A stretch of 64,000 bases of DNA from Candidatus Omnitrophota bacterium (GCA_041662125.1 JBAZTA010000004.1:343-64342), one strand, 5' to 3'. Counted from the first letter of the stretch, positions 639-20,355 are shown. Translations and numbers: made by a program. Notes: a model not told the origin generated them from the letters alone.

Positions 639-2372
639 TTAGCCTGATTCCAAGGTAACCCGAAAAACTTCTTCGGTTGTTGTAACACCCAGTATCAATT
701 TATCTAACGCAGCTTTACGCAAGGTCGTTAAACCTTCTTTTACGGCAACCTCGCGGATAACTTCAGCTGAAGAACGCGTCAGGACCATTTGTTGAATTCC
801 TGGCGACATCTTTAAAAGCTCATAAATACCGATCCTCCCCTTATACCCTGTTTTATTGCATATCTGGCAGCCGCGGCCGCGGCTGAATTTAATATCCTTG
901 CCTATTTTTTCTTCTAACCCTAAGCTTTTAAGCAATTCAGGCGCCGGAGCGTAATATTCTTTACACTTTTCACAAACCCGCCTGACTAAACGCTGAGCCA
1001 GGATACCCAATAACGATGAAGAGACTAAAAACGGCTCAACGCCCATATCAATTAAACGCGTAAAAGAAGATGCAGAATCATTCGTATGCAGCGTCGAGAA
1101 AACAAGATGGCCGGTAAGCGCGGCCTGTACCGCGATCTCAGCGGTTTCCTTATCTCTAATTTCTCCGACCATAACAATATCAGGGTCCTGGCGCAAAAAA
1201 GAACGCAAGGCGCTCGCAAACGTCAAACCCGCAATAGGATTGACCTGAACCTGGCGCATTCCCTGAAACTGATACTCAACCGGATCCTCAACAGTCATAA
1301 TATTGACATCTTCTTTATTAAGCATCTGCATACTGGAATATAGTGTCGTAGTCTTACCGCTGCCGGTAGGGCCGGTAACCAGGACAATGCCATAGGGAGA
1401 ACTAAGGATTTCTTTAAATAAAGACATTTCCCGGGAAGGAAACCCCAGCGATTCCAACCCTAAGACCAGCCCTGTTTTATCCAAGATCCTCAAAACCACA
1501 TTTTCTCCATGAACCGTAGGGCATGTGGAGACGCGAAAATCAATATTCTTGCTGCCGATCTTCATCATAATACGGCCGTCTTGCGGCAGGCGCTTCTCAG
1601 CAATATCCAGGTTTGACATGATCTTAAACCGGGATATGATCGCGCCGGCCAAATCACGCGGAAGAGACGGCTGATGACGCAGGATCCCATCAATACGGTA
1701 ACGAACATTTAAAAGCTTATCTTCCGGTTCGATATGAATATCCGAAGCTTTCATCTGCACTGCCTGCACAATAAGATGGTTGACTATTTTTATGATCGGA
1801 GCCTCTTCTCCAAGTTTCTCTCCGTCAACAAGTTTGTCTTTATCGATTGAAGCAATGATCTGCTGTAAATTAAACGCTGAACCCCCGTAATATTGGTCCT
1901 GGGCTTTACGAATATCTAATTCTTCGGCTAAAACCGGTTCCACATTAAGCTTGGTTATACGCTGCAGTTCATCGATAACGAAAACATTCTTAGGGTCCTG
2001 CATCGCGACAGTAAGCGTATTCTCAACTATGAAAACAGGGATCAATTTATACTTTCTGGAAAATTCCTCGGGGATAATCTTGATAACATCAGGTTCAATG
2101 ATATAGCCGGCAAGATTGAATTTAGCGATACCGGATTGGGAGGCTAGCGCCCGCTCTAATTCCTCCTGGCTGACCAATCCATTTTTAAGCAAGATCTCCC
2201 CTATCTTCTCAGTAGAAAACTTCTGCTGATCGAGAGCTTCTTTTAACTGAACCGGCGTGATCAAACCGCGTTCAATCAGTATTTCACCTAATTGTTTATG
2301 AAAACCTTCTGCCATAGTATGTATGTAATTTTCACCACAGGACTTGACGCAGGCGAGCATCCATCTCTTCAA
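639..2372 (-). CDS. PilB/GspE/MshE-family traffic ATPase with N-terminal MshEN (T2SSE_N) domains
   Basis: Walker A GPTGSGKTTTLYS, Asp/His boxes and a C-terminal tetracysteine (CEKC...CQIC). The N-terminus QLGEILIERGLITPVQLKEALDQQ plus the tandem KIGEILLKNGLVSQEELERALASQ match the 24-aa MshEN c-di-GMP-binding motif RLGxxLVxxGxITxxQLxxALxxQ. The true start is probably the internal Met at 2315 (MAEGFHK), which removes the 41-nt overlap with the upstream gene. Confidence 0.9.
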   Translation of the reverse strand: MKRWMLACVKSCGENYIHTMAEGFHKQLGEILIERGLITPVQLKEALDQQKFSTEKIGEILLKNGLVSQEELERALASQSGIAKFNLAGYIIEPDVIKIIPEEFSRKYKLIPVFIVENTLTVAMQDPKNVFVIDELQRITKLNVEPVLAEELDIRKAQDQYYGGSAFNLQQIIASIDKDKLVDGEKLGEEAPIIKIVNHLIVQAVQMKASDIHIEPEDKLLNVRYRIDGILRHQPSLPRDLAGAIISRFKIMSNLDIAEKRLPQDGRIMMKIGSKNIDFRVSTCPTVHGENVVLRILDKTGLVLGLESLGFPSREMSLFKEILSSPYGIVLVTGPTGSGKTTTLYSSMQMLNKEDVNIMTVEDPVEYQFQGMRQVQVNPIAGLTFASALRSFLRQDPDIVMVGEIRDKETAEIAVQAALTGHLVFSTLHTNDSASSFTRLIDMGVEPFLVSSSLLGILAQRLVRRVCEKCKEYYAPAPELLKSLGLEEKIGKDIKFSRGRGCQICNKTGYKGRIGIYELLKMSPGIQQMVLTRSSAEVIREVAVKEGLTTLRKAALDKLILGVTTTEEVFRVTLESG

Positions 2373-5300
2373 GCTTATTTAACCAGCTTTTCACCGCTTT
2401 CTCTTTCTTCCCCTGGGCTGATTCCGAATATATATTTTCCTCATTACCAGATTGCCGTATCTGGTTTGTTTTCCGTTTAGACATTTGATACTCTAACTGC
2501 TCTTTATCGCGTAGCGCTTCTTTACGCCTTTCTACTGCTGATTGCTGCTGGTCAATCTTGGCTTTTGCCGCCGATTCCCGCTTATCGAGTAATGGCTGCT
2601 GACCTTGAGATCGTATAAAACGTTTTTGCTGCTTTAACTCTGCCTGAAGCAGCTGTTCTTCTTTAACCCGCTGGCGCTTTTCTTCTTTAGCCGCCTCCAA
2701 CTCTTGAACGCGTTCCAACTTCTCTTTTTTCGCTGTTATCCGTTGTTCATGAATTTGTTTTTGTTGCTGGATTTTCTGCTCTACGAGCTGGAGTTTAGCT
2801 TCCTCAGCCTGTTTCAAGCGTTCTTGTTTTTGCTGCAGGGCCTCCTGATGCTGCGCAAGGCGCTGTTTTGCCAATTCCTGATCCTGCGAAGCCATTTGGC
2901 GCTTTTGCTCTTCAAGCTGATGTATACGCTCCTGTTCCTGCTTCTCTGCTGCCAGGCGCTTCTCTTCTTCTTCCTTGGCCAGCTGTTCCAGGCGCTTTTT
3001 TTCTTCTTCCTGAGCAAAAATACGGGCCGCCGAAACAGCCTGTTTTTGCTCTAACAGTTCTTTTTGTTTCTCCGCGATTTTCAGTTTCTTGGCTTCAGCT
3101 AACTTTGCCTGTTCTGCTGCTGCCTGCTTCTCCGCTGCCAGCTGCTTCTCTTCCGCTTCCTTAGCCAACCGTTCTTGGCGAACATTCTCGTCTTTAAGCT
3201 TCTTCAAACGCTCCTGCTTCTGGGCCTCTAAAACCAACCGGTTTGCTTTTTTAATCCCTGCCTGCTCTTCTGCTATCTGTTTCTGCTTTTCCTGGGCTGC
3301 TTTTTCCGCTGCCAACTGCTTCTCTTCCGCTTCCTTAGCCAACCGTTCTTGGCGAACATTCTCGTCTTTAAGCTTCTTCAAACGCTCCTGCTTCTGGGCC
3401 TCTAAAACCAACCGGTTTGCTTTTTTAACCCCTGCCTGCTCTTCTGCTGTCTGTTTCTGTTTTTCTTGTTCCTGCTTCTCTGCTGCCAGACGTTTCTCTT
3501 CCTCTTCCTTAGCCAGCTGTTCTTGGCGTTTTCTTTCTTCTTCAAGCTGTTTAAAACGTTCCTGCTTATTGATTTCCGCTGCCAACCTCTTTGCTGCTTT
3601 AAGGCTTGCCTGTTCCGCTGCTATTTGCTTCTGTTTTTCCTGTTCCTGCTTCTCCGCTGCCAAGCGTTTTTCTTCTTCTTCCTTGGCCAACTGTTCCGTT
3701 GATTTTTTTTCTCCGTCAGGCTTATGCAAAGTTTCCTGTTTCTTTTCCTCTATTGCCTTATTCCCGATCTGCCCTTTATCTCCTTTAGCCTTCTTTTGCA
3801 ATCTCTGTTTACGCAATTCTTCCTTTTGTATCCGCGCTTCTTCTAAAGAAACCTCTTTTCTTTTCGCAAGCCAGGCAGAAACATCTTCTTGCGACTGTTC
3901 TCCTCCCGCAGCCTGCGGAGATTTTTGCAGCTTTATCAAGGCCTGTTCCTGGGCCGCTACCCCTTCCGGCTTAAGCGCTTCCTGAGGCTTTAAAACCTCA
4001 ACCGATTGTTGCAGAGGGGCTATTGACTCTGCTTTTTTTTTAGCCTCCAGGGCTATTTGTTTTATCTGATCCGCTTGCTCTTGTCGGCGCTTCTTGTCTT
4101 GCGCAGCCTGTTTTAAACGCGCCTCTTTTTTCTCTTGAGCTTCCCGCTGCTTTATTTCTTTCTGTTTTCCTAATTGAATCTTCTGTATTTCAAGGGCCTG
4201 CTTTTGCTCTTCGATCTGAGCGAGGTAATTTTGTTCCTGCTCAGTTAATTGCTGAGTGCATTCTTTTTTTAATTTCTCCTCTTGCTTCTTTTTTTCTTGT
4301 TTTAATCTTTCCTGTTCCGCGGCTTTTTGCTTCTGTTTTTCTTCTTCAGCACGAACAAGTTCAGCCGCGCGCTGTTTTTCTTCCGCTTGCCGCTTTAACT
4401 CTTCCTGTTTTCTTTCTTCAGCGAGAAGCTTTCTTTCTTCCCTGATCTTTTCTTTTGCCGCTTCCAATTCTTGCAGCCGTTCCTGTTTTTCTTTCGCGGC
4501 TTCAAGCCGTTCCTCTGCCTTCTGCTTGGCGAGTTCTTCTTTATTTTTCTTTGTTTCTTCAAGCTTCTTAAGGAGCGCCTGTTTTCTTTGTTCTTCTGAT
4601 ACCTGTTTCTCTGCTGCCAGGCGTTTTTCTTCCTCTTGCTGAGCCAAATCTTCCTGCCGCTTCTGCTCCTGCGCAAGCTGCTTTATGCGCGCTTCTTTTT
4701 GTTGCTGGGCGAGTTTCCTTTTATCTTCTTTGAGCTTTTCCTGTTCACTTAAACGCTGTTTCCGCGCGTCTTCTTTTTGTTTCTTGCTGAGCTGCTTCTG
4801 GCGTTCCTCTTCCTGCCGTACGGCCTCTAACTGTTGCCGCTGCTGCAGCTGCTCTAATGCAAGTTTTTGCGTGATCAATTCCTGTTTCTTAGCCTCGATT
4901 TCCGCAAGGCGAGCCTGAGCCATACGCTCACGCTCCAGATTCTCTTCATTCAAACTTTTTTGTTCTTTTTGTTTTGCCAGGTCTTCTTGGCGCCTGCGTT
5001 CCTCATCTTGGGCAAAGAAGCGGGCCTGCGTGGCGATTCTTTTTTCTTCCTCCAAAGCAATCTGCCGCTGTATCTGGTCCTCTTCCTTAATATACTGATC
5101 TATCCTGTTTACCAAAGCGTTGATTCTGCCGTCCTCACCCAGATATTCTGTCTGCATGCCCGGGACGGTTTTCTGTACTGCCGAAGTTTCCTCAATTTTC
5201 TTATCCGTTCTGCACCCGGCCATGGAAGGAGCCGGCAGGGAATCAACTATTTTACTCTTATCTACCTGTATACCTGCCGGTGACTGCTCTTTTAAGAAAT

Positions 5301-5529
5301 CTTGGATCGCCTGCTTGCGCCTCAAAACCTCTGCTTTTTTCTTACGCAGCGCCTTGATATATTCCTCTTCTGCTTTGACCTTCTGCCGCACATCTTTCAG
5401 GCGCATTTCTTTTTCAACCGCGTTATTATCTTGAGCATAAGAGGCAGCGCTTCCCCAAAACATACATCCCATTACCCATACACCCGCGATCATAAAGAAT
5501 AATTTTTTCATCAGATAACCCCTAAGCAT
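2332..5529 (-). CDS. Giant (1065 aa) secreted E/K/Q-rich coiled-coil or single-alpha-helix protein with internal tandem repeats
   Basis: N-terminal signal peptide MKKLFFMIAGVWVMGCMFWGSAASYAQ. More than 800 aa of charged low-complexity helix (EEEKRLAAEKQEQEKQKQ...). Exact 58-aa (174-bp) tandem repeats are visible in the DNA at about 3131-3650. Its start codon abuts the stop of the upstream secretin gene (5529/5530). Confidence 0.8.
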   Translation of the reverse strand: MLRGYLMKKLFFMIAGVWVMGCMFWGSAASYAQDNNAVEKEMRLKDVRQKVKAEEEYIKALRKKKAEVLRRKQAIQDFLKEQSPAGIQVDKSKIVDSLPAPSMAGCRTDKKIEETSAVQKTVPGMQTEYLGEDGRINALVNRIDQYIKEEDQIQRQIALEEEKRIATQARFFAQDEERRRQEDLAKQKEQKSLNEENLERERMAQARLAEIEAKKQELITQKLALEQLQQRQQLEAVRQEEERQKQLSKKQKEDARKQRLSEQEKLKEDKRKLAQQQKEARIKQLAQEQKRQEDLAQQEEEKRLAAEKQVSEEQRKQALLKKLEETKKNKEELAKQKAEERLEAAKEKQERLQELEAAKEKIREERKLLAEERKQEELKRQAEEKQRAAELVRAEEEKQKQKAAEQERLKQEKKKQEEKLKKECTQQLTEQEQNYLAQIEEQKQALEIQKIQLGKQKEIKQREAQEKKEARLKQAAQDKKRRQEQADQIKQIALEAKKKAESIAPLQQSVEVLKPQEALKPEGVAAQEQALIKLQKSPQAAGGEQSQEDVSAWLAKRKEVSLEEARIQKEELRKQRLQKKAKGDKGQIGNKAIEEKKQETLHKPDGEKKSTEQLAKEEEEKRLAAEKQEQEKQKQIAAEQASLKAAKRLAAEINKQERFKQLEEERKRQEQLAKEEEEKRLAAEKQEQEKQKQTAEEQAGVKKANRLVLEAQKQERLKKLKDENVRQERLAKEAEEKQLAAEKAAQEKQKQIAEEQAGIKKANRLVLEAQKQERLKKLKDENVRQERLAKEAEEKQLAAEKQAAAEQAKLAEAKKLKIAEKQKELLEQKQAVSAARIFAQEEEKKRLEQLAKEEEEKRLAAEKQEQERIHQLEEQKRQMASQDQELAKQRLAQHQEALQQKQERLKQAEEAKLQLVEQKIQQQKQIHEQRITAKKEKLERVQELEAAKEEKRQRVKEEQLLQAELKQQKRFIRSQGQQPLLDKRESAAKAKIDQQQSAVERRKEALRDKEQLEYQMSKRKTNQIRQSGNEENIYSESAQGKKEKAVKSWLNKLEEMDARLRQVLW
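3131..3650 (-). repeat. Coding tandem repeat, period 174 bp: two near-identical copies plus a diverged third
   Basis: 3131-3294 and 3305-3469 are nearly base-identical (differences e.g. taatccc/taacccc and gctatctg/gctgtctg). A third, more diverged unit follows. On the minus strand this encodes LVLEAQKQERLKKLKDENVRQERLAKEAEEKQLAAEK..QEKQKQIAEEQAGIKKANR. Confidence 0.85.
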
Positions 5530-6798
5530 CTATTGCTTCATTTTTTCTACAACTACTTTTTCCACTTCCTCTAAAACCCTGAGGTCCTGTTCTTGCCTGC
5601 GCAGATCCTGCTCCAATGCTTCTCTTTCTGAAAGCAGGGAAGAATGTTTTTTATTGAGCATCTCGACCTTAGTCGCGGTTTCTTTTTGTTTTTTCTTTTC
5701 CTGAGCCTCTGCCACTAACACATCCTTTTCCTGTTTCTGTTTTTCCTGAAAATAATGCTTTCCCAGGCCGTACCTCTCCTGCTGCCCCATTTTTACAAAC
5801 TCATTCGGCGTGATTATCGTAGGAGAGACAAAGATCATTAATTCTGTCTTATCAAACGTGTCTTTCTTGCTTTTAAACAAATACCCAAAGCCGGGGATAT
5901 CTCCTAAAAAAGGTATCTTCGTTTCTCCCTTGATGACTTTATCTTTGATCAATCCGCCGATGATCAATGTCTGCCCGTTACCAACAATGACCTTCGTCGT
6001 TGCTTCACGCCGGTCAATAATGGGAACATTATATGACACCCCGGAAGCAGTCAGCGGCAACTCTCCGGTCTTTTCGCTTATCTGTGGATACAATTCCATA
6101 GCTATGTTGCCAGCTTCATTGATGGTCGGAGTTACCTTCAGGCTTATACCAACTTGTTCAAAATGTACTACCCAGGTCACCGTGGTGACGCCATCAGTGG
6201 TTGTCGCCTGCGGCTCGGCCCAAGGGACACTTTGAATGATCTTTAATTCCGCTTCACGGTTATTCACCGTTGTTATCCGCGGCGCAGAAAGGATGCTCGT
6301 ATCCACCGCGTTAGCTAACGTTTGCAATACCACATTGATATTATCATCAAATATGGCAAAAGTAAACGGCGTTTCCGAAACTCCTGATGACGACACCGGA
6401 GGGTATAAAGTATTTTTGTAGGAAAGGCTTTGAGTTATCGGCCCTGGTAACGCTCCCAAGGTACTTGCTGAGCCGGACTTTAAAGTGCCGATAGGCAGAT
6501 ATCCTTTATCCGCGAATAACCGCCAATTCACGCCTAAAGAGTGTTCTTTCTGTAATTTTGCTTCAATGACCCGGGCTTCGATCAAAACCTGCTGAGGAAC
6601 AGTATCCACCATTGCCAGGTAATCTTCAACCCGCTGGACGTTATCAGGATAATCGATCACAACAATAGAATTCGGCTCATTGCCATAGAGAACCTTTCCC
6701 TCCGTAGATAACAACGATCTAATGTTATCACTGACTTGTTGAGCATAAACTACGGAAAAGCAAAAAAGAAAAAATAAAACGTATCCTAACTTTTTCAT
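5530..6798 (-). CDS. Secretin core protein (one N-domain plus secretin C-domain) lacking an N0 domain; C-terminal EK-rich coiled-coil tail
   Basis: Signal peptide MKKLGYVLFFLFCFSVVYAQ. N-domain motif NSIVVIDYPDNVQRVEDYLAMVDTVPQQVLIEARVIEAKL. Secretin signature IPFLGDIPGFGYLFKSKKDTFDKTELMIFVSPTII. About 90 aa of charged C-terminal extension. Confidence 0.8.
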   Translation of the reverse strand: MKKLGYVLFFLFCFSVVYAQQVSDNIRSLLSTEGKVLYGNEPNSIVVIDYPDNVQRVEDYLAMVDTVPQQVLIEARVIEAKLQKEHSLGVNWRLFADKGYLPIGTLKSGSASTLGALPGPITQSLSYKNTLYPPVSSSGVSETPFTFAIFDDNINVVLQTLANAVDTSILSAPRITTVNNREAELKIIQSVPWAEPQATTTDGVTTVTWVVHFEQVGISLKVTPTINEAGNIAMELYPQISEKTGELPLTASGVSYNVPIIDRREATTKVIVGNGQTLIIGGLIKDKVIKGETKIPFLGDIPGFGYLFKSKKDTFDKTELMIFVSPTIITPNEFVKMGQQERYGLGKHYFQEKQKQEKDVLVAEAQEKKKQKETATKVEMLNKKHSSLLSEREALEQDLRRQEQDLRVLEEVEKVVVEKMKQ

Positions 6799-6852: not shown

Positions 6853-7806
6853 CTAATTCGTAGTAGTTGCCGATGACGAGGAAGACGCACTGCCGGATGA
6901 GGAAGTAGTTCCCGTCGAGGTACTGCTCCCTGCCGTAGTAACAACGCCTACTATATCAGAAGCTTTTAAATACTTCATCTTAAAAATTTTACTTGTCATA
7001 CGCTGATCGATCTGTTTTAAATAATCTTCGATTTGCGCGGCATTCGGAGGATAATCAATAATAATAATTGAATTCGGGAGCTGCCCTAAAAGGATCTTTC
7101 CTTTCTCAGAAATAAGGTCATAGATCGTGCTTTCTTCCTTTTTTGCCTCAGCCGGCAGAGCCGCGTTACCCGCAGGAGATGCTACCGTCTTTGATTGGGC
7201 GCCTTGCGCTGCTTTCGCAGCTTCAAGCAGCTTCTTAGCTTGAATATATTTTAAAACAACCATCTTGGTAACCAGATGAGGACTGACCCGGATAATCGAA
7301 CCTTTTTTCTCTACCACCAGATTACTGATCTCAGCAATTCCTTCAAGAGCCTCTTCTAATGAAATGTTCGTAAAACTGGCGGTGATTTTCCCCTTGATAT
7401 CTTTATCAACCAAAATATTCAAATTATAATCATGCGCAATAACGCGGAACAAGTCAGACAACTCCACATTCCTTAACTCAATCGAATATGACGGCTGCTC
7501 ACTTTCTAAACGCTTGATCTCTAATACCGGCGCAGGCGCAGTTAATTCTTTTTTTACAACGTCTTTCTTTCCCGCATCCTTAACATCGGCTTCTGCTTTT
7601 TCGTCAGCCGGCTCTTCATCCTTACTATCGTCAACGCCGGAATCTTTTTGCCCAACGCTGGGCACCGAAGGCTTCGGTTGAGCCGGTTTTTCGGAATCCT
7701 CATTTTCCATTTCTGTCTGCGGCCGGGCAAACAATGGATCTTGGTAATTATAAAGCATAAAAAAGAAACCGATTAATCCGATAAACGCTATTTTCTTTAG
7801 TGTCAT
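6853..7806 (-). CDS. Secretin N0-N1 domain protein (N-terminal half of a split secretin) with acidic linker and Ser/Thr-rich C-terminal tail
   Basis: Signal/TM MTLKKIAFIGLIGFFFMLYNY. Acidic low-complexity stretch. N0/STN-like block SIELRNVELSDLFRVIAHDYNLNILVDKDIKGKITASFTNISLEEALEGIAEISNLVVEKKGSIIRV. N1-like block LPNSIIIIDYPPNAAQIEDYLKQIDQR. Tail TTAGSSTSTGTTSSSGSASSSSSATTTN. Confidence 0.65.
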   Translation of the reverse strand: MTLKKIAFIGLIGFFFMLYNYQDPLFARPQTEMENEDSEKPAQPKPSVPSVGQKDSGVDDSKDEEPADEKAEADVKDAGKKDVVKKELTAPAPVLEIKRLESEQPSYSIELRNVELSDLFRVIAHDYNLNILVDKDIKGKITASFTNISLEEALEGIAEISNLVVEKKGSIIRVSPHLVTKMVVLKYIQAKKLLEAAKAAQGAQSKTVASPAGNAALPAEAKKEESTIYDLISEKGKILLGQLPNSIIIIDYPPNAAQIEDYLKQIDQRMTSKIFKMKYLKASDIVGVVTTAGSSTSTGTTSSSGSASSSSSATTTN

Positions 7807-9863
7807 TTTTTAAGTCCTTGTTCTGAATTCAAATCTTTGCCACCGATGATAGATTCGAATTCTGTTTTATCAAGCCCTTTTCCCCACATGACTGTTACCT
7901 GATTTTTTTGCACACCGTACGCGAACAACTCTTTCGTCGCAAGATTCGAGAAAAAATCGCCCCGGCCCTCCTTGAAAACCCCCCGCTTATTTTCCTCGAC
8001 GGATATGCCCGGGTATTTTTTCTGAAGCCACTGTTTTTGCCCTTGCGCAAATTCTAACGCATCATCAATCGTATCCCAAAACGACACAAAACGTATGAGC
8101 CGGTTGCCCTGGCTATTTTCATACACCATAACACGATCACCCTGCCAACCCGAAACGGATTTATCGGAAGTTTCCTTGTCTAACAAGGTATTTAAAGATA
8201 TAAGGAGCGTAAATTCACCAAGGGTAGTTTCATAGATCTTTTTCCATTGCAGGGGGACCTTAACGCTCTCTTCAACAACGGGAACATCTTTTTCTGACGC
8301 TATTTCCCTGCCCACATACTTATGAGGATGCATGATCTCCTCCATGGAAACAGGAGGCGTTGTATAAACAGCATTAATGTCGCTCCAATTGAACTGCCGT
8401 AAATACGCCTGTATGAACCGCGCCCCATAACCGTATACATTATACCGGATATTCTGCTTTGCGTACTGTGATTGTTTTAGAAATTTATCTTCCAGCAAGG
8501 TAAAAACATCTTCAAGATTCTGCAGTTTCTTATCATCCTTGTTCAAAATATACTCAAGCATTACCGCGGTAGCATCCCCCTCTATAAGGGACTGACGGGC
8601 AAACGCCAGGTCAAAATTATCCCTCGTATGAAGGCGGTCAGAGAATTTCTCAATATCGTAGTTTTTATCCTGAAACGCATGCGCCAGCTCATGGACCGCG
8701 ACTACTTCGGCAAAATGAGGAGGCAGCCAATCTCCGATAAAAATCGTCTTTGTTTTAGGGTCATATAACCCCGCGATCGAAGAAATTTCCGCATTAAGCA
8801 TGCTTTCAAGATAATCCGCATCTTGATGCACTAAACCCAGCCATTTCATGACAAAACCTTCATTATCCCTGATTTCTTCAGGAAAATCATTATCCGATGC
8901 TGTTCTTAAAAGCTCCCCGAACGACACACGGTCTTTATATTCGACTTGAATCGTTTCTGGTTTCACCCAGCCTCGTATCTGCATAACTGCCTGCGTCAAA
9001 CCAGGAAGCATTCCTTTAAGCTTTTCTTTTTCTTGTGTGACCTTTTCTTCAACAACCGCGGGAATTGCCGATACAACCGGAACACCGAAATCGGAATAGG
9101 TGACGGTCTGCAAAATATACATATCACCCAGCTTGCCTTCAGCACGCAACAGGCGCGGAAGGAACGTATTGGCATCTACCCAGGTTTTGACCTTGATCTC
9201 ACCAACCACATTCCAATACGTAAACATTTGAGCGCCCAGCCTATACTGCAGGACAAAACAATCTTTGCCATTCCTTTTTTCAACACCAACCAGCTCAAGA
9301 GTTAAAGCGTCAGCCGCGGCTGCATTGATTGAAGCAAGGCTGTTTAAAACCCCGTATTCAACCGCTTGTTGAGCGTCTTTTGCCGAGATCTTCAATTGCT
9401 CGCATTTCCATTCCCGTTTATTCAAATCCCAGGTAAAAGGGATCCCCCTGATCATATACGTTTGTACCCATTGCGAAGTTGAAATACCGTTAGATAAAAG
9501 CAATGATACACTGACTCTACCGGTCGTCCGATAATCATCATGATTGGTAATTTCGCTCTTAAAATCTGATTTGATATGGAAAAGGGGGTTTTCAAGCCAC
9601 GTTTCGATTTCCATGTGCACAGAACGTGCTTTAAAAAATGCTGAGGTGGTTTTTTCCAGGATTTGATACGGGCTAAGTTTAACGCTTACTTGAGGGAATG
9701 AAGAAATTATCTGATGTTCTTTTTGGCCTTGCGCAGCAGTATCCGGTTTAGGCCCCATACAATCAGTTAAATTGATCCGCTGCCAACCGGCAAGTAACGG
9801 TAAAGCAATAACGAAGAACATGCCGACAGAGATTCTTTTTAATCCTGACCCTGTTTTCATCAA
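7803..9863 (-). CDS. Secreted or periplasmic HEXXH zinc-metallopeptidase-like protein (686 aa)
   Basis: N-terminal signal/TM (MFFVIALPLLAGW). HEXXH motif VVAVHELAHAFQD with a downstream Glu (SLIEGDATAV). No closer family assignment is possible by eye. Confidence 0.5.
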   Translation of the reverse strand: MMKTGSGLKRISVGMFFVIALPLLAGWQRINLTDCMGPKPDTAAQGQKEHQIISSFPQVSVKLSPYQILEKTTSAFFKARSVHMEIETWLENPLFHIKSDFKSEITNHDDYRTTGRVSVSLLLSNGISTSQWVQTYMIRGIPFTWDLNKREWKCEQLKISAKDAQQAVEYGVLNSLASINAAAADALTLELVGVEKRNGKDCFVLQYRLGAQMFTYWNVVGEIKVKTWVDANTFLPRLLRAEGKLGDMYILQTVTYSDFGVPVVSAIPAVVEEKVTQEKEKLKGMLPGLTQAVMQIRGWVKPETIQVEYKDRVSFGELLRTASDNDFPEEIRDNEGFVMKWLGLVHQDADYLESMLNAEISSIAGLYDPKTKTIFIGDWLPPHFAEVVAVHELAHAFQDKNYDIEKFSDRLHTRDNFDLAFARQSLIEGDATAVMLEYILNKDDKKLQNLEDVFTLLEDKFLKQSQYAKQNIRYNVYGYGARFIQAYLRQFNWSDINAVYTTPPVSMEEIMHPHKYVGREIASEKDVPVVEESVKVPLQWKKIYETTLGEFTLLISLNTLLDKETSDKSVSGWQGDRVMVYENSQGNRLIRFVSFWDTIDDALEFAQGQKQWLQKKYPGISVEENKRGVFKEGRGDFFSNLATKELFAYGVQKNQVTVMWGKGLDKTEFESIIGGKDLNSEQGLKK

Positions 9864-10322
9864 CTACGCTTCTCCCGGGACAACTGCTTCGATTTTAATA
9901 ATATACTCCCCTTGAGTATCTTTTAAAATAACATCTTCGGCATTAATCGTTATCACCTGTTTATTATCAATAATATCTCCGACTTCATACACCTGGCCGT
10001 TAATGATTGCTTTACTTTTATTTTTAGGCGAATGCATAATCGCCGATACCGTTAAATAATCAAGCGGGATTTGCGCGCTTTTATTTTCAAAAGATGATTC
10101 CTCATCTGTGCTTAAAAAAGGGTTCTGCCGGGGCAACGCGTCAAAATAAGAAGACTGCGGCGCCTGCACCGGAGCATCACCTGTTACCGCAAGAGCGGCC
10201 TTCTTTTTTGGTTTTGGCTCAGAAGACTGATCTGCCAAATGCCCTATTTCAGTTTCAGAGCTGCAGCCTCCGCAAGAAAAAGCAAACAATAAAATAAGCG
10301 AAAGGATCCTTATCTTATTCAA
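9864..10322 (-). CDS. PilP/GspC-HR-like lipoprotein
   Basis: Lipobox LFAFSCGGCSS. C-terminal beta-domain pattern AIINGQVYEVGDIIDNKQVITINAEDVILKD resembles PilP and the GspC HR domain, and is paralogous to 19885-20355. Starts with TTG at 10322, overlapping the upstream HTH gene by 8 nt. Confidence 0.55.
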   Translation of the reverse strand: MNKIRILSLILLFAFSCGGCSSETEIGHLADQSSEPKPKKKAALAVTGDAPVQAPQSSYFDALPRQNPFLSTDEESSFENKSAQIPLDYLTVSAIMHSPKNKSKAIINGQVYEVGDIIDNKQVITINAEDVILKDTQGEYIIKIEAVVPGEA

Positions 10323-10692: not shown

Positions 10693-11526
10693 TTAAACCC
10701 GCGCAAGCTTCAAGAGTTTACTCTTGCTATCCTCAGAAATTTCTGAGAATTTTATACCTAAATAATACCGCTGTCTTTCCTGAATATTGCAATAAACAAT
10801 CTCTCCCTGAACCGCAATAACCTCATCACCGATCCCGGGATTCGGCCTAAATTCTATATCCACCGTAAGGCCTTTAGGCAGAAATAAGCATACCTGTAAA
10901 CTAACAGCTTTCCCGGATTCCGATATATTACAGGACACCCCCTCAACAGAAAGAATAGAACGCAATTGCACTTCTGTTCCTGCAAAGATAACACGCACAG
11001 GAACAGTTAAACTGCGGCGGCCTGATTCCCTGCGAAACGGTACCCCTTGTAAAGGATTTTTCTTGAATAATAACTTCTCCAGTTTAAAAAAATCTGCTTG
11101 CGGGCCGTAATATAAATCAAGCGCTTGCAGGATAGCGCGGGGAGAAGCAATCAACGGCTCTATCGTTGCCCCGCTCAGAGAAGCTATGCGGTCAAGTAAC
11201 GCAGTATCAAAAGGGTCCCCGCAAGCCACATACAACGTATTCTTTATTTTAAATAACGGGATACACTCATACTCCCGGCAAAAAGATTCGCTTAACCCTT
11301 GGAAGACATGCGCGCTAATTTTATAGTCCGGAATAGTTACGTAATTGACCGCGCTTTCCTGTGAGAAAAATACAAAAATATCTTCTTCGGTAAGATACTC
11401 CAGCTTTACCAACACACTCCAAATGGACCTGCCTAACTTCAACGCTTCCTGCTTGGCGTCAAGCAGTTGTTGCGAAGTAATCAACGTACTGCGGACAAGC
11501 TTCAACTCAAACTCTTCCATCGGCAA
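10693..11526 (-). CDS. MshEN (T2SSE_N)-PilZ two-domain c-di-GMP effector
   Basis: The N-terminal 140 aa is GSPII_E-N-like (LITSQQLLDAKQEALKLG...ACGDPFD...DLYYG). The C-terminus is a PilZ fold with RRESGRRS (RxxxR) and CNISESGKAV (D/NxSxxG). Confidence 0.7.
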   Translation of the reverse strand: MPMEEFELKLVRSTLITSQQLLDAKQEALKLGRSIWSVLVKLEYLTEEDIFVFFSQESAVNYVTIPDYKISAHVFQGLSESFCREYECIPLFKIKNTLYVACGDPFDTALLDRIASLSGATIEPLIASPRAILQALDLYYGPQADFFKLEKLLFKKNPLQGVPFRRESGRRSLTVPVRVIFAGTEVQLRSILSVEGVSCNISESGKAVSLQVCLFLPKGLTVDIEFRPNPGIGDEVIAVQGEIVYCNIQERQRYYLGIKFSEISEDSKSKLLKLARV

Positions 11527-11530: not shown

Positions 11531-12103
11531 CTATCCTTTTTCTTGCTGAGGGTAATACTTTTTTATAAAATCAGCCAGGTTTTCCGAAATCTTCTGTTCT
11601 TCAATAATATACATGCCTCCCTTAGTTAACTCTTCCGGAGATACCTGCGGGTACTTTTTCTGCATTGCTTCAAGCCATTCTGCCTGCTGACGGGCAATTT
11701 TCAGCAATACCCGGTTATCGCGGACCACATCAAAATAATCAAGCGACTGCTTCACGATCATTTTCAATTCTTCGTTTTCCCAGGGTTTGGTAATAAAGCG
11801 GTATACCTGCCCCTTATTGATTGCCTGAATAGCAGCTTCCAGGTCAGGATACCCGGTAAAAAGGATACGGATCGAATCAGGATAGAGCTGTTTAACTTTA
11901 ACCAGAAAATCAACGCCCTGGCCGTCTGGCAGGCGGTTGTCGGAAATGACTAAATCCACACCTCCTAAACTCTTGAGTTTATCAAGGCCTTCCTGAACAC
12001 AACCAGCAATATTTATATCCCTGTCTTCAGCGCGCAGCAGCCTGCTTAAACTGCTTAAAATATTCTGCTCATCATCAACGATTAAAATAGTATGGTTAGG
12101 CAT
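11531..12103 (-). CDS. Response regulator receiver (CheY-like REC) with short C-terminal extension
   Basis: ILIVDDEQNI...DLVISDNRLPDGQGVDFLVKVK...FTGYPD...ITKPW: phospho-acceptor Asp and conserved REC motifs. Confidence 0.85.
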   Translation of the reverse strand: MPNHTILIVDDEQNILSSLSRLLRAEDRDINIAGCVQEGLDKLKSLGGVDLVISDNRLPDGQGVDFLVKVKQLYPDSIRILFTGYPDLEAAIQAINKGQVYRFITKPWENEELKMIVKQSLDYFDVVRDNRVLLKIARQQAEWLEAMQKKYPQVSPEELTKGGMYIIEEQKISENLADFIKKYYPQQEKG

Positions 12104-12455
12104 TCTTTTGCTCCTCTAAATTTTTAACATAGTGATCGATATACTCCTTTCCGGAAGACGGAAAGATTTTTGTAAACATGACCCCCATGCCCGCCGCCTC
12201 TGAGCCACCCGCGGGCCTGCTCCACTGCACTATCCCTTCCGCATGAATGATCTTCTTTTCTTTGCCGCCTTCATCAAACTCAAACATGACCTCGATCTTG
12301 GCATTAGCCGGCTCTACCTTATCGGTTGAAACAAACATCCCTCCCGCGGAAATATCGCGGGTTTCGACATACTGCCAAAAACTTTTTCCTCTGACCTCTA
12401 CTCGTAGCTTAACAAACGCCCGCTTATATTGCCTTTTTTCGTCAAAAGCCCCCAT
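12096..12455 (-). CDS. Standalone PilZ-domain protein
   Basis: RQYKRAFVKL (RxxxR) and DISAGGMFV (DxSxxG) motifs. Confidence 0.75.
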   Translation of the reverse strand: MGAFDEKRQYKRAFVKLRVEVRGKSFWQYVETRDISAGGMFVSTDKVEPANAKIEVMFEFDEGGKEKKIIHAEGIVQWSRPAGGSEAAGMGVMFTKIFPSSGKEYIDHYVKNLEEQKNA

Positions 12456-13457: not shown

Positions 13458-14696
13458 CTAGTTCCCTTTAATAACGCGGATCATATTCCACAACGGCAGG
13501 AATATTGCCAACGCCATCCCGATAACCACCATTCCCAAGACCGCGGTCATCACCGGCTCGATCATCGTCGTTAGGTTTTTTATCGCATTCTTTACTTCCA
13601 AAGTAAAATATTCACACAATGAATCAAGCATGAGCGGCAACGCACCGCTCTTTTCTCCCACGGAGATCATGTAACCGACCAGGCGGGGGAAAAATTTACT
13701 GTTCAATACCGCTCCGGAAATACCCTTTCCGTCGGCAACATCGCGTTTAATAGCTTCGATCTCTTTTGCCAAAACAACATTGCCCAGCGTCATTCCGACG
13801 ATATCGATCGTATTGAGCACCGGCAAGCCCGCCTGATACAAAACACTTAACATCGAGGCAAAACGCAACATCGTTATTTTCGTATATACCTTTCCATAAA
13901 TATAGATCTTAAATTTTAAGCCATCCCAAAGGAACCTGCCTGAAGCGGTATTAATATACCACTTCACGAAAACAACTAATCCGATTATCGCCGGGAAGAG
14001 GATATACCAATAATACCGCAAGGTATCGCTGATAACGATCATCACCTGTGTCGGCAGGGGAAGATCGACTTTTGCTGCTTTATAGATCTGGGCGAACTGC
14101 GGAATAACAAAGATCGAAAGCACACAGACCGCGATTACCAGCGAGATCACGACCATTAACGGGTAACGCAGCGCTGCTTTGATATTCGTCTGGGTCTCTA
14201 AATCTTCTTCCAGCATATGCGCCAGGCGCAGCAAAACCTTTTCTAAAACGCCCGCGCTTTCCCCGGCGATCACCGTATTCACGTACAAGTCGGAAAAAAC
14301 ACCCGGGTGCTTCGCCATAGCCTGAGATAAACTTGATCCCCCTTCCACATCGCGCACCACCTGATGCAGGGCGTCTTTGAGCACGGGATCCTCGCATTGT
14401 TCCCCTAAAGCGGTTAACCCTTCCAGGATAGGAACCGCGGCTTTTATGATTGTGGCGAACTGCCGCGAGAAAATAACCAGCGACTCTATTTTTACTTTTT
14501 TTGACTGAGCAAAAAGCCCCCCAGACGAAACCCTTGATTTGGAGATCGAAGCATCTTTGGCTTTAACGCTGACATTGACCGGAATATACCCCATCTTCGC
14601 CAGCTTCGTCGTCAACTCCACTTCAGTTGAAGCGTCCATTTCGCCTTTAACAAGTTTTCCGTCTGAATCGACTGCCCGATATGCGTACGTTGACAT
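13458..14696 (-). CDS. pilC: Type IV pilus / T2SS inner-membrane platform protein PilC/GspF
   Basis: About 400 aa with duplicated T2SSF domains and three TM segments. Conserved motifs: FSRQFATIIKAAVPIL..L and GEKSGALPLMLDSL. Confidence 0.9.
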   Translation of the reverse strand: MSTYAYRAVDSDGKLVKGEMDASTEVELTTKLAKMGYIPVNVSVKAKDASISKSRVSSGGLFAQSKKVKIESLVIFSRQFATIIKAAVPILEGLTALGEQCEDPVLKDALHQVVRDVEGGSSLSQAMAKHPGVFSDLYVNTVIAGESAGVLEKVLLRLAHMLEEDLETQTNIKAALRYPLMVVISLVIAVCVLSIFVIPQFAQIYKAAKVDLPLPTQVMIVISDTLRYYWYILFPAIIGLVVFVKWYINTASGRFLWDGLKFKIYIYGKVYTKITMLRFASMLSVLYQAGLPVLNTIDIVGMTLGNVVLAKEIEAIKRDVADGKGISGAVLNSKFFPRLVGYMISVGEKSGALPLMLDSLCEYFTLEVKNAIKNLTTMIEPVMTAVLGMVVIGMALAIFLPLWNMIRVIKGN

Positions 14697-14722
14697 ATTT
14701 TACGATGCCTTTTTAGCCTGCT

Positions 14723-16387
14723 TTACAACTGCTCCGAGGAAACCCTTGAGATTTCTTCAATAGTAGTTACCCCTAACAAGACTTTCGATAACCCGTCTTC
14801 GCTTAAAAGTTTCATGCCGTTTTCCTGCCCTTTTTTACGCAAAGCAAGCGCGGATGCCTGCTGCACGATCATCTCTCTCATTTCATCACTGATCACCAAC
14901 AATTCAAAGATGCCGGCCCGGCCGCGGTAACCAGTGCCTTTACAACTGTCGCATCCTTTCCCGTGATATAATGTCACGTTCGAGGCGTTCGTCAAGCCCC
15001 ATTTTTCTAAGATAACTTTTGACGGCTGATACGGCTCTTTACAATTCTCGCAGATCTTCCTGACAAGCCGCTGCGCCATGACGCCGATTAAACAAGCGGA
15101 AATGAGAAACGGTTCAACTCCCATATTGACGAGCCGGGTCACTGCGGAAGGAGCATCATTGGTATGAAGCGTCGAGAACACTAAATGGCCGGTCAACGCT
15201 GCCTGGACAGCAATAACGGCAGTTTCTAAATCCCTGATTTCCCCCACCATAATCACGTCAGGATCCTGACGCAGTATAGCGCGCAAGCCATTGGCGAAAG
15301 TGATGCCGGCTTTTGCGTTAACCTGGATCTGCCGGATAAGCCCTAAACGATATTCCACAGGGTCTTCAATCGTAATAATGTGCCGGTCGATCGTATTGAT
15401 CGTGGTGAGCGCGGAATAGAGCGTGGTCGTCTTACCGCTTCCCGTCGGACCGGTTGAAAGGATGATGCCGTATGGCTTGGAGATCAAGCCCCGGTAACGA
15501 TCCAGGTCTGTCTGTGTCGCAAAACCCAACCGTTCCAGGCCGATCCTGACTGAAGCGGTATCCAAAAGCCTCATAACCAGGTTCTCTCCGTAAATAGTCG
15601 GAATAGTCGAAACACGGAAATCAATGATCTTTTCATCTACCTTAACCTGGAAATGGCCGTCCTGCGGGACCCTGCTTTCAGCAATATCCATCCCCGCTAA
15701 CACCTTCAAACGGGAAAGGATCGCCGGTTCCCATTCTTTGGGAGGAGAAGGGATCTCGTGCATAATACCATCGATACGGAAGCGTATGCGGGTCATATCC
15801 TGTTCGGGCTCAATGTGAATATCTGAGGCCCGGTCATGGACTGCCTGAGCAATAACCAAATCTACCAACTTAATAATTGAGGTGCCTTCCGAACGTGACT
15901 CTTTGGAAGGGGCAGACTCTTTGGTATTTAACCCCTCAAGCAAGTTTTTAGTAATCTTGCGCTCAACATATAAACGCTGCTGCGCGTCTGCGATATCCTG
16001 AGTGCCGGCATAATAAACTTCAATAGGCATCCCGGTATGCATCTGTATCTGGTCAATGGCGTATAAATCATTCGGGTCAGCCATGGCAACGCGCAGCGTA
16101 TTATTATCGATCTTAACCGGAATTGACTGTGTCTGGCGGGCTAACCCTTCCGGCACGGTTTTAATGAGCTCCTCGTCAAACTCGATATTTTCCAGGCTCA
16201 CATACTTAAAACCCAGCGATCGGGCGATAGTTTCATGCAAGAGAGGGCGGGAAACAATATTCATATCAACCAGGACTTTATCCAGCGGCCGCTTTAACAT
16301 TTTCATTTCCTGGCTTGCCCTGTCTATGTCCGCCTGATTAACCAATCCCGAGCTTAACAATAATCCTTCCAGATCTTTATCATTCAT
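14723..16387 (-). CDS. pilB: PilB/GspE-family assembly ATPase (second copy)
   Basis: N-terminal GSPII_E-N domain. Walker A GPTGSGKTTTLYSAL. C-terminal CxxC...CxxC (CENC...CDSC). Confidence 0.9.
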   Translation of the reverse strand: MNDKDLEGLLLSSGLVNQADIDRASQEMKMLKRPLDKVLVDMNIVSRPLLHETIARSLGFKYVSLENIEFDEELIKTVPEGLARQTQSIPVKIDNNTLRVAMADPNDLYAIDQIQMHTGMPIEVYYAGTQDIADAQQRLYVERKITKNLLEGLNTKESAPSKESRSEGTSIIKLVDLVIAQAVHDRASDIHIEPEQDMTRIRFRIDGIMHEIPSPPKEWEPAILSRLKVLAGMDIAESRVPQDGHFQVKVDEKIIDFRVSTIPTIYGENLVMRLLDTASVRIGLERLGFATQTDLDRYRGLISKPYGIILSTGPTGSGKTTTLYSALTTINTIDRHIITIEDPVEYRLGLIRQIQVNAKAGITFANGLRAILRQDPDVIMVGEIRDLETAVIAVQAALTGHLVFSTLHTNDAPSAVTRLVNMGVEPFLISACLIGVMAQRLVRKICENCKEPYQPSKVILEKWGLTNASNVTLYHGKGCDSCKGTGYRGRAGIFELLVISDEMREMIVQQASALALRKKGQENGMKLLSEDGLSKVLLGVTTIEEISRVSSEQL

Positions 16388-16388
16388 C

Positions 16389-17033
16389 TTAATCCCTGAT
16401 AGTCAACAATCTTCCAACCCACGCCTTTACTGCGTTGGCATCATCTGCTTCAGGCGCGCATTTGAGATACTTCTGATAATACTCAACCGCCTTTTTATTA
16501 TCTTTCAATTGTTCTTCATAGATAACACCCAGGTTATAGCAGGCATCAGCCTGATTCTGATTCAATGCCAGCGATTTCAAAAACATTTTTACTGCCTGGT
16601 TGAATTGCTTGGTTTTCAAATACTCGATCGCCAGGTTATAATATAAATCACTGCTCTGCGGCTCGATCTCAATGGCGCGCAGATAGAGCGGGATAGCGTC
16701 TTTTGATTGCTCTTTCTGGGACAAAAGCCATGCCCTGCGGGCTGAGGACACAGTAGGTTCATCGGCTGCCGGTGAGGCTTGCGCCGGCGGCGCTGTGCGG
16801 GGAGGTATTCCCCCCAGGAGATCCTGCGCTTTTTTTAATTCTTCGTCAGCAAGGGCATAATTTCCTTCCTGCATATATTTTTCCCCCGCAGAATAATACT
16901 CTTTTGCTTTCTTGATCTTATCAGTGGGAGAAAAAGAAGCCGCCTGGTATTCCTGGGCAGCGGCAAACACAGAAACGAACAAAACCCCTATCAGCATTCC
17001 CAGCGGAACTATACACGCGCGATCTTTTTTCAC
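16389..17033 (-). CDS. TPR-repeat protein with signal peptide, PilF/PilW-like secretin pilotin candidate
   Basis: Signal peptide followed by TPR repeats (AQEYQ...YYNLAIEYLKTKQFNQAVKMF...YNLGVIYEEQ). Sits between pilQ and pilB. Confidence 0.6.
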   Translation of the reverse strand: MKKDRACIVPLGMLIGVLFVSVFAAAQEYQAASFSPTDKIKKAKEYYSAGEKYMQEGNYALADEELKKAQDLLGGIPPRTAPPAQASPAADEPTVSSARRAWLLSQKEQSKDAIPLYLRAIEIEPQSSDLYYNLAIEYLKTKQFNQAVKMFLKSLALNQNQADACYNLGVIYEEQLKDNKKAVEYYQKYLKCAPEADDANAVKAWVGRLLTIRD

Positions 17034-17036
17034 CTG

Positions 17037-19789: not shown

Positions 19790-19884
19790 TATGAATGCCT
19801 CTTGGATAACACCTGATTTTTTCCTGATAAAAAATTATACCACACTCCCAGCAATAGTTTGACTATTTTTATACACGCCAAAGC

Positions 19885-20355
19885 TCATTGGTTTTGTTCC
19901 CCGGGAAACGTCAAATAAAAACTCTGGCTTTCTTTTTTAAGCAACACCTTTGCTTTCTGAACTTCAACGACTTCATAACCGCCTACCGCGTCGCCTTGCT
20001 TCACGATCTCATTATTAATAAAAGCGTAACCTGCCCTGCCTTTTCCGAAAGAGATGCCCTGGAGTTTAAGTTCATCCATTTTAAATTCTTTATCAAACAG
20101 GGCAATAAAAGGGTCGCGTCCCCAGCTAAGCTTGCCTCGCTCCAGCTGCTGGATACGCATAGTATCGCCGGCAGCCGGCGTTGCGGCAGACATCGATGGA
20201 GACAATACTGCCACCGGAGGGGCCAGCGACACGGTTGTTTGCGTCTCGGGGATCGGCGCTTTAGAAGGCTTCTTCTTTAAATTCCCCAACGTAACAAAGG
20301 CTAAAACGACGATAAGACAACCTGTTAAGATAAATTGTTTTATTTGTTTAGACAT
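19885..20355 (-). CDS. pilP: PilP-like pilus assembly protein
   Basis: N-terminal TM/lipoprotein-like segment. C-terminal beta-domain LQGISFGKGRAGYAFINNEIVKQGDAVGGYEVVEVQKAKVLL is typical of PilP and the GspC HR domain. Confidence 0.65.
   Translation of the reverse strand: MSKQIKQFILTGCLIVVLAFVTLGNLKKKPSKAPIPETQTTVSLAPPVAVLSPSMSAATPAAGDTMRIQQLERGKLSWGRDPFIALFDKEFKMDELKLQGISFGKGRAGYAFINNEIVKQGDAVGGYEVVEVQKAKVLLKKESQSFYLTFPGEQNQ

Follow-up and report, generated by a model that had tools for sequence, protein, structure and literature searches.

The pilotins PulS, OutS and AspS are small proteins, often encoded near the secretin, that bind the C-terminal extension (S-domain) of the secretin. 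GspB/OutB serves as an anchor of the secretin on both the inner membrane and the cell wall, and its length differs among homologues (PMC9239104). In Thermus, the lineage-specific linker PilW connects the secretin to the inner-membrane platform, and a 54-residue deletion moved the platform density by ~7 nm (PMC13039148). Type IVa pilus genes are reported to be near-universal in Omnitrophota (PMC10066038), and here we describe a gene from a 64,000-nucleotide stretch of Candidatus Omnitrophota bacterium DNA (GCA_041662125.1 JBAZTA010000004.1:343-64342; the whole stretch is called the window below). The target gene (2332..5511, stop codon at 2332-2334) encodes a product of 1059 amino acids (aa). 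Its neighbours are the C-terminal half of a split secretin on one side and an assembly ATPase on the other, as a prediction made from the sequence alone had proposed, and these neighbours match PF00263 (E=3.9e-46) and PF00437 (E=3.7e-142), respectively. The genes of the locus are all on the (-) strand, to which the coordinates below refer.

The family to which the target belongs is an undescribed, Omnitrophota-specific, Sec-exported accessory of a type IV pilus-like machine. Our preferred reading, to which we give a probability of roughly two in five, is that the target is a periplasmic tether or scaffold of the outer-membrane pore, docked on the C-terminal tail of the secretin. After export to the periplasm, a conserved N-terminal helix (the N-module) would pair with the 75-residue helical tail of each secretin subunit, and many copies of the protein would decorate the secretin ring. 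The spacer would keep a C-terminal Trp helix at a distance, that helix may bind the membrane interface or another part of the machine, and the protein would in this way tether or scaffold the pore. The spacer would evolve by tandem duplication and deletion and would have been inflated here to ~900 helical residues. Zipping of the N-module onto the tail is proposed because the gene and the tail co-occur, the two genes are adjacent and paralogues carry a copy of the tail. The gene, its modules, the family with its synteny, the single-alpha-helix-like statistics of the spacer, its repeat-driven variation in length and the co-occurrence with the tail are observed; we infer the periplasmic location, the docking, the role of the Trp helix and any function of spacer length.

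A gene family between secretin and ATPase

Relatives of the target were recovered through synteny. An alignment of 21 secretin C-halves was used to fetch 35 genome loci and 50 metagenome loci (85 loci), and the slot was defined as the interval between the secretin C-half and the PilB/GspE ATPase (used in loci L002-L030 and L037-L084). A hidden Markov model (HMM) of the N-module was built from 18 slot proteins and applied with a cut-off of E<1e-3. Of 26 assessable genome loci, 15 had an N-module-positive gene in the slot and 11 had an empty slot; among the metagenome loci the slot was positive in 18 of 30 and empty in 12 after de-duplication. In total the model matched 46 non-identical proteins, comprising 45 slot proteins (18-62 bits) and one secretin tail (in L059), with no other match at this cut-off among the ~1240 open reading frames (ORFs) of the loci. 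Members outside the training set were also matched (18-55 bits), and 980 shuffled family sequences scored at most 6.2 bits. The match always lies directly after the signal peptide, at residues 23-52 of the slot proteins.

All slot proteins carry a signal peptide, mostly with an A-x-A↓Q-type end (the arrow marks the cleavage site), followed by a conserved ~45-aa helix with a consensus of roughly L..L...I..E...[VL]..L+K+Y..[IL]L.+K..L. In the target the signal peptide comprises aa 1-26 (5434..5511; MKKLFFMIAGVWVMGCMFWGSAASYA↓QD), and it is probably cleaved by signal peptidase I; the cleavable signal peptide proposed earlier agrees with the signal-like N-terminus seen on inspection and with a type of site that recurs across the family. 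The N-module that follows (aa 27-75, 5287..5433) is the family signature and the proposed docking helix. It is matched by the HMM at 46.7 bits (E=8.8e-14 with --nobias, ORF residues 36-82) and, with a heptad a/d occupancy of 5.1/8 (z=2.3), is the only heptad-like part of the target.

Most occupied slots hold a single gene. Two or three tandem paralogues are found in L016, L020, L008, L049, L059, L060, L083 and L084. In slots with two paralogues, the gene whose product ends like the secretin tail usually comes first and the gene ending in a Trp motif, if present, adjoins the ATPase (L049, L060); the pair in L060 is separated by a 73-aa ORF. Among the 37 complete, non-identical members, length runs from 100 to 1221 aa (median 291), and the target is one of the three longest.

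Three classes of C-terminus were distinguished. The first, Cw, ends in ...SWLxxhExhDxxLxxxLW-COOH (...D-x2-h-x3-h-W-COOH) and includes the target, L002, L003, L007, L010, L027, L016b, L020c and several metagenome members. In the target this C-terminal module (aa 1035-1059, 2335..2409) is an amphipathic Trp motif, SWLNKLEEMDARLRQVLW-COOH, that aligns in register with SWLDRMEKIDQWLKENLW of L020c and with other members, and the hydrophobic moment of its helix (0.38) exceeds the spacer mean (0.19). The second class comprises seven clear homologues of the secretin tail, located 1-12 residues from the end of the protein (E from 3.6e-16 to 3.6e-5); such tail copies in paralogues suggest a shared helical interaction code. 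The third class, with neither ending, consists of minimal forms of 100-110 aa. The C-terminal Trp was also considered as an outer-membrane beta-signal, in which a terminal aromatic residue follows alternating hydrophobic residues at -2, -4 and -6 of a beta-strand. In the family the conserved hydrophobic residues occur at positions 0, -1, -5 and -9 (W/R at -6), and the idea was rejected because this spacing is helical and the segment is predicted to be helical.

One locus without a slot gene, L013, carries two EKRQ-rich proteins with signal peptides (537 aa and at least 352 aa; 16446-19112) further downstream, after ABC-like genes. Neither reached E<1e-3 with the N-module HMM, and both were left out of the family count.

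The secretin itself is encoded as two polypeptides. The N-half (317 aa, 6853..7806) has its own signal peptide and contains the STN/N0 and Secretin_N domains, and the C-half (422 aa, 5530..6798) has a signal peptide, an N3-like domain, the secretin domain and a helical tail; the C-half is 100 % identical to a protein from a Candidatus Omnitrophota bacterium metagenome-assembled genome at NCBI. The same arrangement, an N0/N1 half and a half with N3 and the secretin domain, is seen in most related Omnitrophota loci (L002-L033 and L037-L086), and an unsplit gene of 572-700 aa is present in L023, L024, L058, L069, L077 and L078. The C-half runs ~95 residues beyond the last beta-strand of the secretin domain, while tail-less secretins end 48-74 residues after that domain. 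An EK-rich tail had been claimed for this secretin, and residues ~345-422 (5533..5766) are indeed charged and helical. AlphaFold2, run on the 21-sequence alignment, returned residues 347-421 as one helix that is the most confident part of the model (predicted local distance difference test score, pLDDT, 78-91), and Leu 381, 388 and 395, at 7-residue spacing, are invariant or nearly so in the 21 C-halves. This tail is the proposed docking partner of the N-module. Isolated weak cross-matches between N-module and tail were seen in L020c (18 bits) and in the one secretin tail that the N-module HMM detected.

Presence of the slot gene goes together with presence of the tail. Among the genome loci, secretins with a slot gene scored 0-89.9 bits with a tail HMM (only L023 scored 0, the next being 24.9), as against 0-35.8 bits for those without (Mann-Whitney p=1.6e-4, and 3.5e-4 for secretins at most 61 % identical to the query). 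Among the metagenome loci the medians were 75 and 2 bits, respectively (p=1.6e-5). Secretin identity to the query did not differ between loci with and without a slot gene (p=0.45 for genome loci, 0.78 for metagenome loci). The link to the EK-rich tail that had been suggested for the target is therefore supported by co-occurrence in two locus sets and by the members that end in a tail homologue.

The same synteny bears on a more mundane explanation, in which the target is a generic charged helix for envelope spacing or the cell wall, like TolA domain II or Lpp, and its adjacency to the secretin is incidental. The E/K/Q/A-rich helical composition resembles that of TolA domain II, and no catalytic or recognisable binding domain was found in the target. 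Synteny with secretin and ATPase is, however, strict in every family locus, and the gene co-occurs with the secretin tail. Searches against Pfam and NCBIfam found no TolA C-terminal domain, and the target has neither an uncleaved TolA-type anchor nor tolQR, tolB or pal neighbours; with no Pfam, NCBIfam or PDB match, it is not TolA-like, as had been predicted, nor TonB-like. We consider the generic helix very unlikely.

Co-occurrence with the tail also speaks for a pilotin-like assembly or stability factor, whose N-module would bind the secretin tail during targeting or assembly only and whose spacer would be a tolerated, neutral expansion of low complexity. The smallest members, of 100-110 aa, consist of a signal peptide, the N-module and ~30 residues, so the N-module alone can be a functional unit, and spacer length varies 10-fold across the family with no obvious correlate. 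Pilotins are described to act on secretin targeting (PMC9239104). The target signal peptide moreover contains a PROSITE-like lipobox (VMGC; PS51257-like pattern), but only 4 of the 46 members have one, and in its strict form the pattern is missed by L002 and L003, both close orthologues, so that lipoprotein character was rejected as a family trait but may hold for the target itself. The distal end also speaks against this alternative: the Trp motif (96-100 % identity to L002/L003) and a block at residues 121-175 are conserved, which argues that the far end has a function of its own and that the spacer joins two ends, and the spacer has kept a helix-compatible, salt-bridge-enriched sequence rather than drifting. 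We regard a pilotin-like role as somewhat unlikely.

Conventional searches gave no hint of the family. No meaningful match to the target was found in Pfam, NCBIfam or PDB sequences, and Pfam likewise returned none for ten shorter relatives. Specific domains were also looked for: Pfam gave no match to HR, T2SSB or PilP domains in the target, which is predicted to be all-helical, and none to T3S4 (the YscP/FliK ruler domain), the context being a type IV filament system; no similarity to pilotins (PulS/AspS/PilF-Tgl, TPR) was found for the target or the ten relatives in Pfam, NCBIfam or PDB. The full-length target and its N-terminal 171 aa had no match among 5.8 billion proteins, a metagenome scan with the N-terminal 170 aa gave no relative, and exact-sequence look-ups of the target (with both starts) and of the ATPase retrieved no record; that of the secretin alone succeeded. 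Two candidates from an exhaustive phmmer search of 1.84 billion representatives with the N-terminal 170 aa, P0121 and P0122, were judged spurious, a chance likeness whose score accumulates by repetition. They are eukaryote-like secreted repeat proteins with KR processing sites, in which a ~36-aa motif occurs 4-9 times at 34-35 % identity to the target, with a weak likeness to EYLGEDGRINALVNRIDQYIKEE.

The empty searches are explained by the composition-bias filter of HMMER, which hides the family: under default settings an HMM trained on the family loses every long member, and with --nobias it recovers them. Genes of this family will thus escape standard homology pipelines and remain orphans. 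In the literature we found no description of the target protein, of the split secretin or of the secretin tail in Omnitrophota.

The target gene, its repeats and its length

The ORF from 2332 to 5529 is present and encodes 1065 aa from its first ATG, which abuts the secretin stop codon (TAG, 5530-5532) as had been claimed. The likely start is, however, the second ATG at 5511, on which three observations agree. An AGGGG Shine-Dalgarno-like motif (5519..5523), read from the sequence, lies 7 nucleotides (nt) 5' of this ATG, inside the 18-nt gap after the secretin stop; the L002 and L003 orthologues (MKRLF...) begin at the equivalent MKK/MKR; and so does the gene called on an independent Logan contig, L001. 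The six codons from 5529 are thus probably an ORF extension. The distance from the secretin stop to the likely start is ~18 nt, operonic and not abutting, so the predicted translational coupling rested on a start codon that is probably wrong, but close operonic linkage stays. On the other side, the ATPase begins at ATG 2315, 16 nt past the target stop and without overlap, and no terminator-like site was found on the coding strand at either target junction.

The protein is composed of 17.8 % E, 16.1 % K, 14.9 % Q, 12.3 % A, 9.6 % L and 7.5 % R. With 56 % E+K+R+Q and ~85 % of residues predicted to be helical, it is the E/K/R/Q-rich helical protein that had been described. It holds only 10 Pro and 22 Gly, grouped in three short stretches.

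A tandem array with a 174-base-pair (bp) period, encoding a 58-aa unit, occupies 3121..3696 (Tandem Repeats Finder: 3.3 copies, 83 % matches), with units starting at 3690, 3516, 3342 and 3168. The period and unit given by the original prediction were right, but the repeats are not exact: near-identity (~98 % over 150 nt) is found only between units 2 and 3, and unit 1 is more diverged. A repeat search further revealed copies of 256 nt that are 86 % and 73 % identical. The sequence ...LAKEEEEKRLAAEKQ... is encoded by an 80-nt motif that occurs nine times between 2930 and 5007, which indicates that the whole rod bears traces of older duplications.

An independent copy of the locus was available on the Logan short-read contig SRR18595301 (L001), which is 99.9 % identical over the secretin, the target and the beginning of the ATPase. 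Its version of the target has 1001 aa, exactly one 58-aa unit fewer (compared with window 3169-3516). The missing unit is either a short-read assembly collapse or real copy-number variation, and the array had been flagged as a likely site of one or the other.

These data also dispose of the possibility that the target is an artefact, either a spurious ORF in low-complexity DNA or a product of mis-assembled repeats. A 298-aa shadow ORF lies on the opposite strand, the repeat number differs between two assemblies of essentially one strain, and the target is not found in protein databases. Nevertheless, on the operon strand the frame stays open over 3.2 kb, the gene is colinear with orthologues of 1069 aa and 1221 aa whose ends are conserved, the independent assembly carries the same gene at 99.9 % identity bar one repeat unit, and the empty searches are accounted for by the HMMER bias filter. 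We therefore consider an artefact effectively refuted.

The target aligns colinearly with L002 (1069 aa) and L003 (1221 aa); insertions and deletions, in blocks the size of a repeat, fall in the spacers only. The 58-aa unit is present in about 3.4 copies in the window, fewer in L002 and ~3 in L003, so its number differs among orthologues; a 25-aa unit is duplicated in L002 and L003 only. Identity to these two orthologues is highest in the C-terminal motif, followed by the block at residues 121-175 (85 %), the helical spacers (67-82 %), the N-module (69 %) and the linkers (36-52 %). The N-module is thus no more conserved than the spacer in these close relatives. In other lineages the spacer has been expanded by unrelated units of 29, 51, 61, 69, 86, 116 and 294 aa, and across the family at least 8 different tandem-repeat units have expanded it independently. 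Repeat-driven elongation is therefore recurrent and not peculiar to the window assembly, and the proposal of a length-variable spacer holds at the level of the family. Typical Cw members measure 184-477 aa, compatible with spanning a periplasm from the secretin to the inner membrane, and the long forms 864-1221 aa.

Spacer structure and possible function

Between the N-module and the Trp motif the target consists of two charged helical spacers and flexible linkers. A Pro/Gly/Ser linker (aa 76-125, 5137..5286) with 36-48 % identity to orthologues, predicted to be disordered (pLDDT <50), precedes spacer I (aa 126-496, 4024..5136), which begins with the conserved block EYLGEDGRINALVNRIDQYIKEE and contains predicted helices at 126-344 and 350-496. 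Linkers 2 and 3 (aa 497-605, 3697..4023; pLDDT <50 at 496-545 and 576-605) flank a short helix at 544-578. Spacer II (aa 606-1034, 2410..3696) contains the tandem repeats and has statistics like those of a single alpha-helix (SAH); helices in residues 606-1059 are predicted at 606-690, 698-823, 827-969 and 973-1058. The single-sequence AlphaFold2 model from which these helices come also has one at 24-75, spanning the N-module, and places disordered linkers at 76-125, 497-543 and 579-605. The ~900 helical residues (~85 % of the target) would extend to as much as ~135 nm end to end, with flexible joints between them. The longest unbroken predicted helix has 219 aa (~33 nm) and there are three Pro/Gly-rich breaks, so a rigid rod of at least 100 nm, as envisaged before, is unlikely on this low-confidence model.

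The spacer resembles a single alpha-helix rather than a coiled coil in its sequence statistics. In 28-aa windows of residues 150-500 and 560-1010 the best a/d occupancy averaged 2.4/8, no higher than in shuffled sequences (z<=0), and 86-100 % of windows had an occupancy of 3/8 or less. Control sequences gave 2.6-2.7 for two myosin SAHs, 4.6 for tropomyosin, 6.2 for Lpp and 6.8 for GCN4 (all of 8). Fourier power at a period of 3.5 residues was at the level of shuffles in the spacer (z=0.0), and opposite-charge pairs at i/i+3 and i/i+4 were enriched over shuffles (z=2.4-5.8). The absence of a heptad seam thus places the spacer with the SAH controls, and it is the N-terminal ~45 aa that are heptad-like. 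Most spacers in the family are equally seam-less. The members in L023 and L077, which stand beside unsplit, tail-less secretins, are canonical coiled coils (5.6-5.7/8).

A further alternative is a role outside the cell, as a cargo exported by this type II secretion-like or pilus machine or as a long, flexible, charged surface filament for attachment to host or prey cells. It has been proposed that Omnitrophota live attached to host cells as predators or parasites and depend on type IVa pili (PMC10066038). The target has a Sec signal peptide and its gene lies within the operon of the machine; an extended length of up to ~135 nm is beyond any periplasm, and surface-exposed proteins typically show such rapid, repeat-driven changes in length. 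The substrates known for type II secretion, on the other hand, are folded globular proteins. Furthermore, the conserved parts of the family are short helices like the periplasmic tail of the secretin, including true tail homologues, no adhesin-like, globular or surface-anchoring domain was detected with Pfam or NCBIfam, and the short members of 100 aa are hard to reconcile with fibres. We consider such a role unlikely.

Docking on the secretin tail also has to be weighed against several findings of our own. The main difficulty for a simple membrane-to-membrane tether is length, as a spacer of up to ~135 nm when extended exceeds any plausible periplasm and nears the size of an ultra-small cell; the forms of 864-1221 aa outsize the periplasm, so that a lateral scaffold or an extracellular function may be considered for them. 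Localisation is judged by inspection of the sequence. The co-occurrence tests ignore phylogeny, and the tail HMM was derived from relatives of the query. A profile comparison of N-module and tail with hhalign was not significant (probability 24 %). Some 40 % of related loci lack the slot gene, which is therefore dispensable in many lineages and an accessory rather than a core part of the machine. The spacer has a salt-bridge density of 0.15-0.21 per residue versus 0.30-0.40 in ER/K SAHs and a charged fraction of 46-49 % versus 61-63 % in the SAH controls; charge-pair density is lower because Gln and Ala replace part of the charge, and a stable monomeric helix is therefore not assured. Finally, the AlphaFold2 model of the target has a mean pLDDT of 62, with the long helices at ~60-76. 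All of these points weigh against the tether or scaffold.

A bolder elaboration of tail docking would have 12-15 SAH arms zipped onto the tails of the secretin ring as a crown, tail and family together making up a structural layer not recognised before, the arm length being tuned quickly by in-frame gain and loss of repeats and setting a distance; we think this quite unlikely. If true, arm length would set, for example, how far the pore stands from the inner-membrane platform or from a neighbouring structure, giant arms could set the lateral reach around the pilus base or towards a host cell, and the family would provide bacterial, exported SAH 'measuring sticks' that act as a repeat-driven rheostat of a type IV pilus machine.

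The finding is of interest on several counts. Omnitrophota are uncultured, ultra-small and probably host-dependent, and their way of life is believed to centre on type IV pili. A split secretin with a long C-terminal helix, together with a co-occurring exported family that probably docks there, would constitute an accessory layer, and we know of no such layer described for any secretin system. The family would also be a rare case of an SAH-like spacer outside the bacterial cytoplasm, and its natural length series of 100-1221 aa offers a ready-made test of spacer length in an envelope-spanning machine. Interest would rise if tail docking and length-dependent function were shown.

Neighbouring genes and described systems

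Read 5' to 3', the locus comprises genes for a histidine kinase, a PilZ protein, a response regulator, an MshEN-PilZ fusion, a MerR-like protein and a PilP/GspC-HR-like protein (152 aa, 9864-10322), followed by a metallopeptidase-like protein, the two secretin halves, the target, the ATPase and a type IV pilin-like protein whose gene, 3' of the ATPase, leaves the window at its edge. The ATPase (558 aa, 639..2315) is of the PilB/GspE/MshE type and has an N-terminal MshEN motif that binds cyclic di-GMP (c-di-GMP). The metallopeptidase-like gene (7803-9863) directly 5' of the split secretin encodes 686 aa with an HExxH motif (DUF6782, with a sub-threshold NCBIfam match to Hvo_1808), and it is syntenic in L002, L003, L004, L007, L008, L013 and L025. 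The MshEN-PilZ fusion (10693-11526) and the lone PilZ gene (12096-12455) flank the response regulator and histidine kinase genes and lie between two pilus clusters; together with the MshEN motif of the ATPase, they suggest that c-di-GMP controls the machine at several layers.

Upstream there is another complete type IV filament cluster (13458-22798). It encodes a PilM-PilN fusion (21005-22798), PilO (20376-20993), a PilP-like protein that is also HR-like (19885-20355), an unsplit secretin of 471 aa (18374-19789), an anchored coiled-coil protein of 446 aa (17037-18377) with an N-terminal hydrophobic anchor and canonical Leu heptads, a TPR protein (16389-17033), a second PilB-like ATPase (14723-16387) and PilC/GspF (13458-14696), so that the super-locus has two secretins and two assembly ATPases. 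The start of the 446-aa coiled-coil gene overlaps the stop of the unsplit secretin gene, and its product has no match to the N-module HMM. Each secretin in the window is thus followed by a gene for a long helical protein. In the relatives L002, L003, L007, L013 and L028-L031, a conserved unit of three genes, coding for an ABC-transporter-like ATP-binding protein, a permease and a protein of 270-290 aa, is interspersed among the pilin genes 3' of the ATPase, an unusual insertion for a pilus operon; the counterpart of this region in our locus falls beyond the left edge of the window.

Among described proteins with long helices, TolA domain II and Lpp are periplasmic, have a biased composition and serve to bridge envelope layers or keep them apart. 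TolA has an uncleaved anchor, a globular C-terminal domain and a tolQRB-pal context, and the target is without all three. Lpp is a 58-aa lipoprotein that forms a trimeric heptad coiled coil, with an occupancy of 6.2/8 as against 2.4/8 for the target spacer. The ER/K SAHs of eukaryotes (myosin VI/X, caldesmon) act as spacers between functional ends and, like the target, are charged, seam-less and enriched in i/i+4 pairs; the target differs in having more Gln and Ala and about half the salt-bridge density, and in being bacterial and exported. In Helicobacter CagY and in the type III secretion rulers YscP/FliK, all parts of envelope-spanning secretion machines, in-frame tandem DNA repeats change protein length, and the length of YscP sets that of a structure. 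Neither CagY nor YscP/FliK is homologous to the target: they belong to type IV or type III secretion, YscP and FliK are secreted substrates with a T3S4 domain, and no counterpart of a YscP-type measured structure is known for the target.

The other comparisons are with secretin accessories. The smallest members of our family (100-110 aa) are pilotin-sized, but pilotins are globular outer-membrane lipoproteins, whereas the family is helical and has neither a conserved lipobox nor sequence similarity to pilotins. GspB is anchored in the inner membrane and binds the secretin N0 domain through its HR domain; the target instead carries a cleavable signal peptide and lacks both an HR domain and any match to T2SSB. 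Another parallel is PilW of Thermus thermophilus, which like the target is a lineage-specific type IV pilus accessory with no relatives elsewhere and a gene beside the secretin, and which is a proposed link between secretin and machine whose length relates to periplasm width. PilW differs in being a flexible, Gly/Pro-rich protein of 292 aa whose C-terminal HR-type domain binds the N-terminus of the secretin, while the target is ~85 % helical, has no HR domain and is proposed to bind the C-terminal tail; the target locus already has a separate PilP/HR-like gene. Neither PilW nor GspB/OutB is homologous to the target, and both are precedents for length-adapted secretin connectors.

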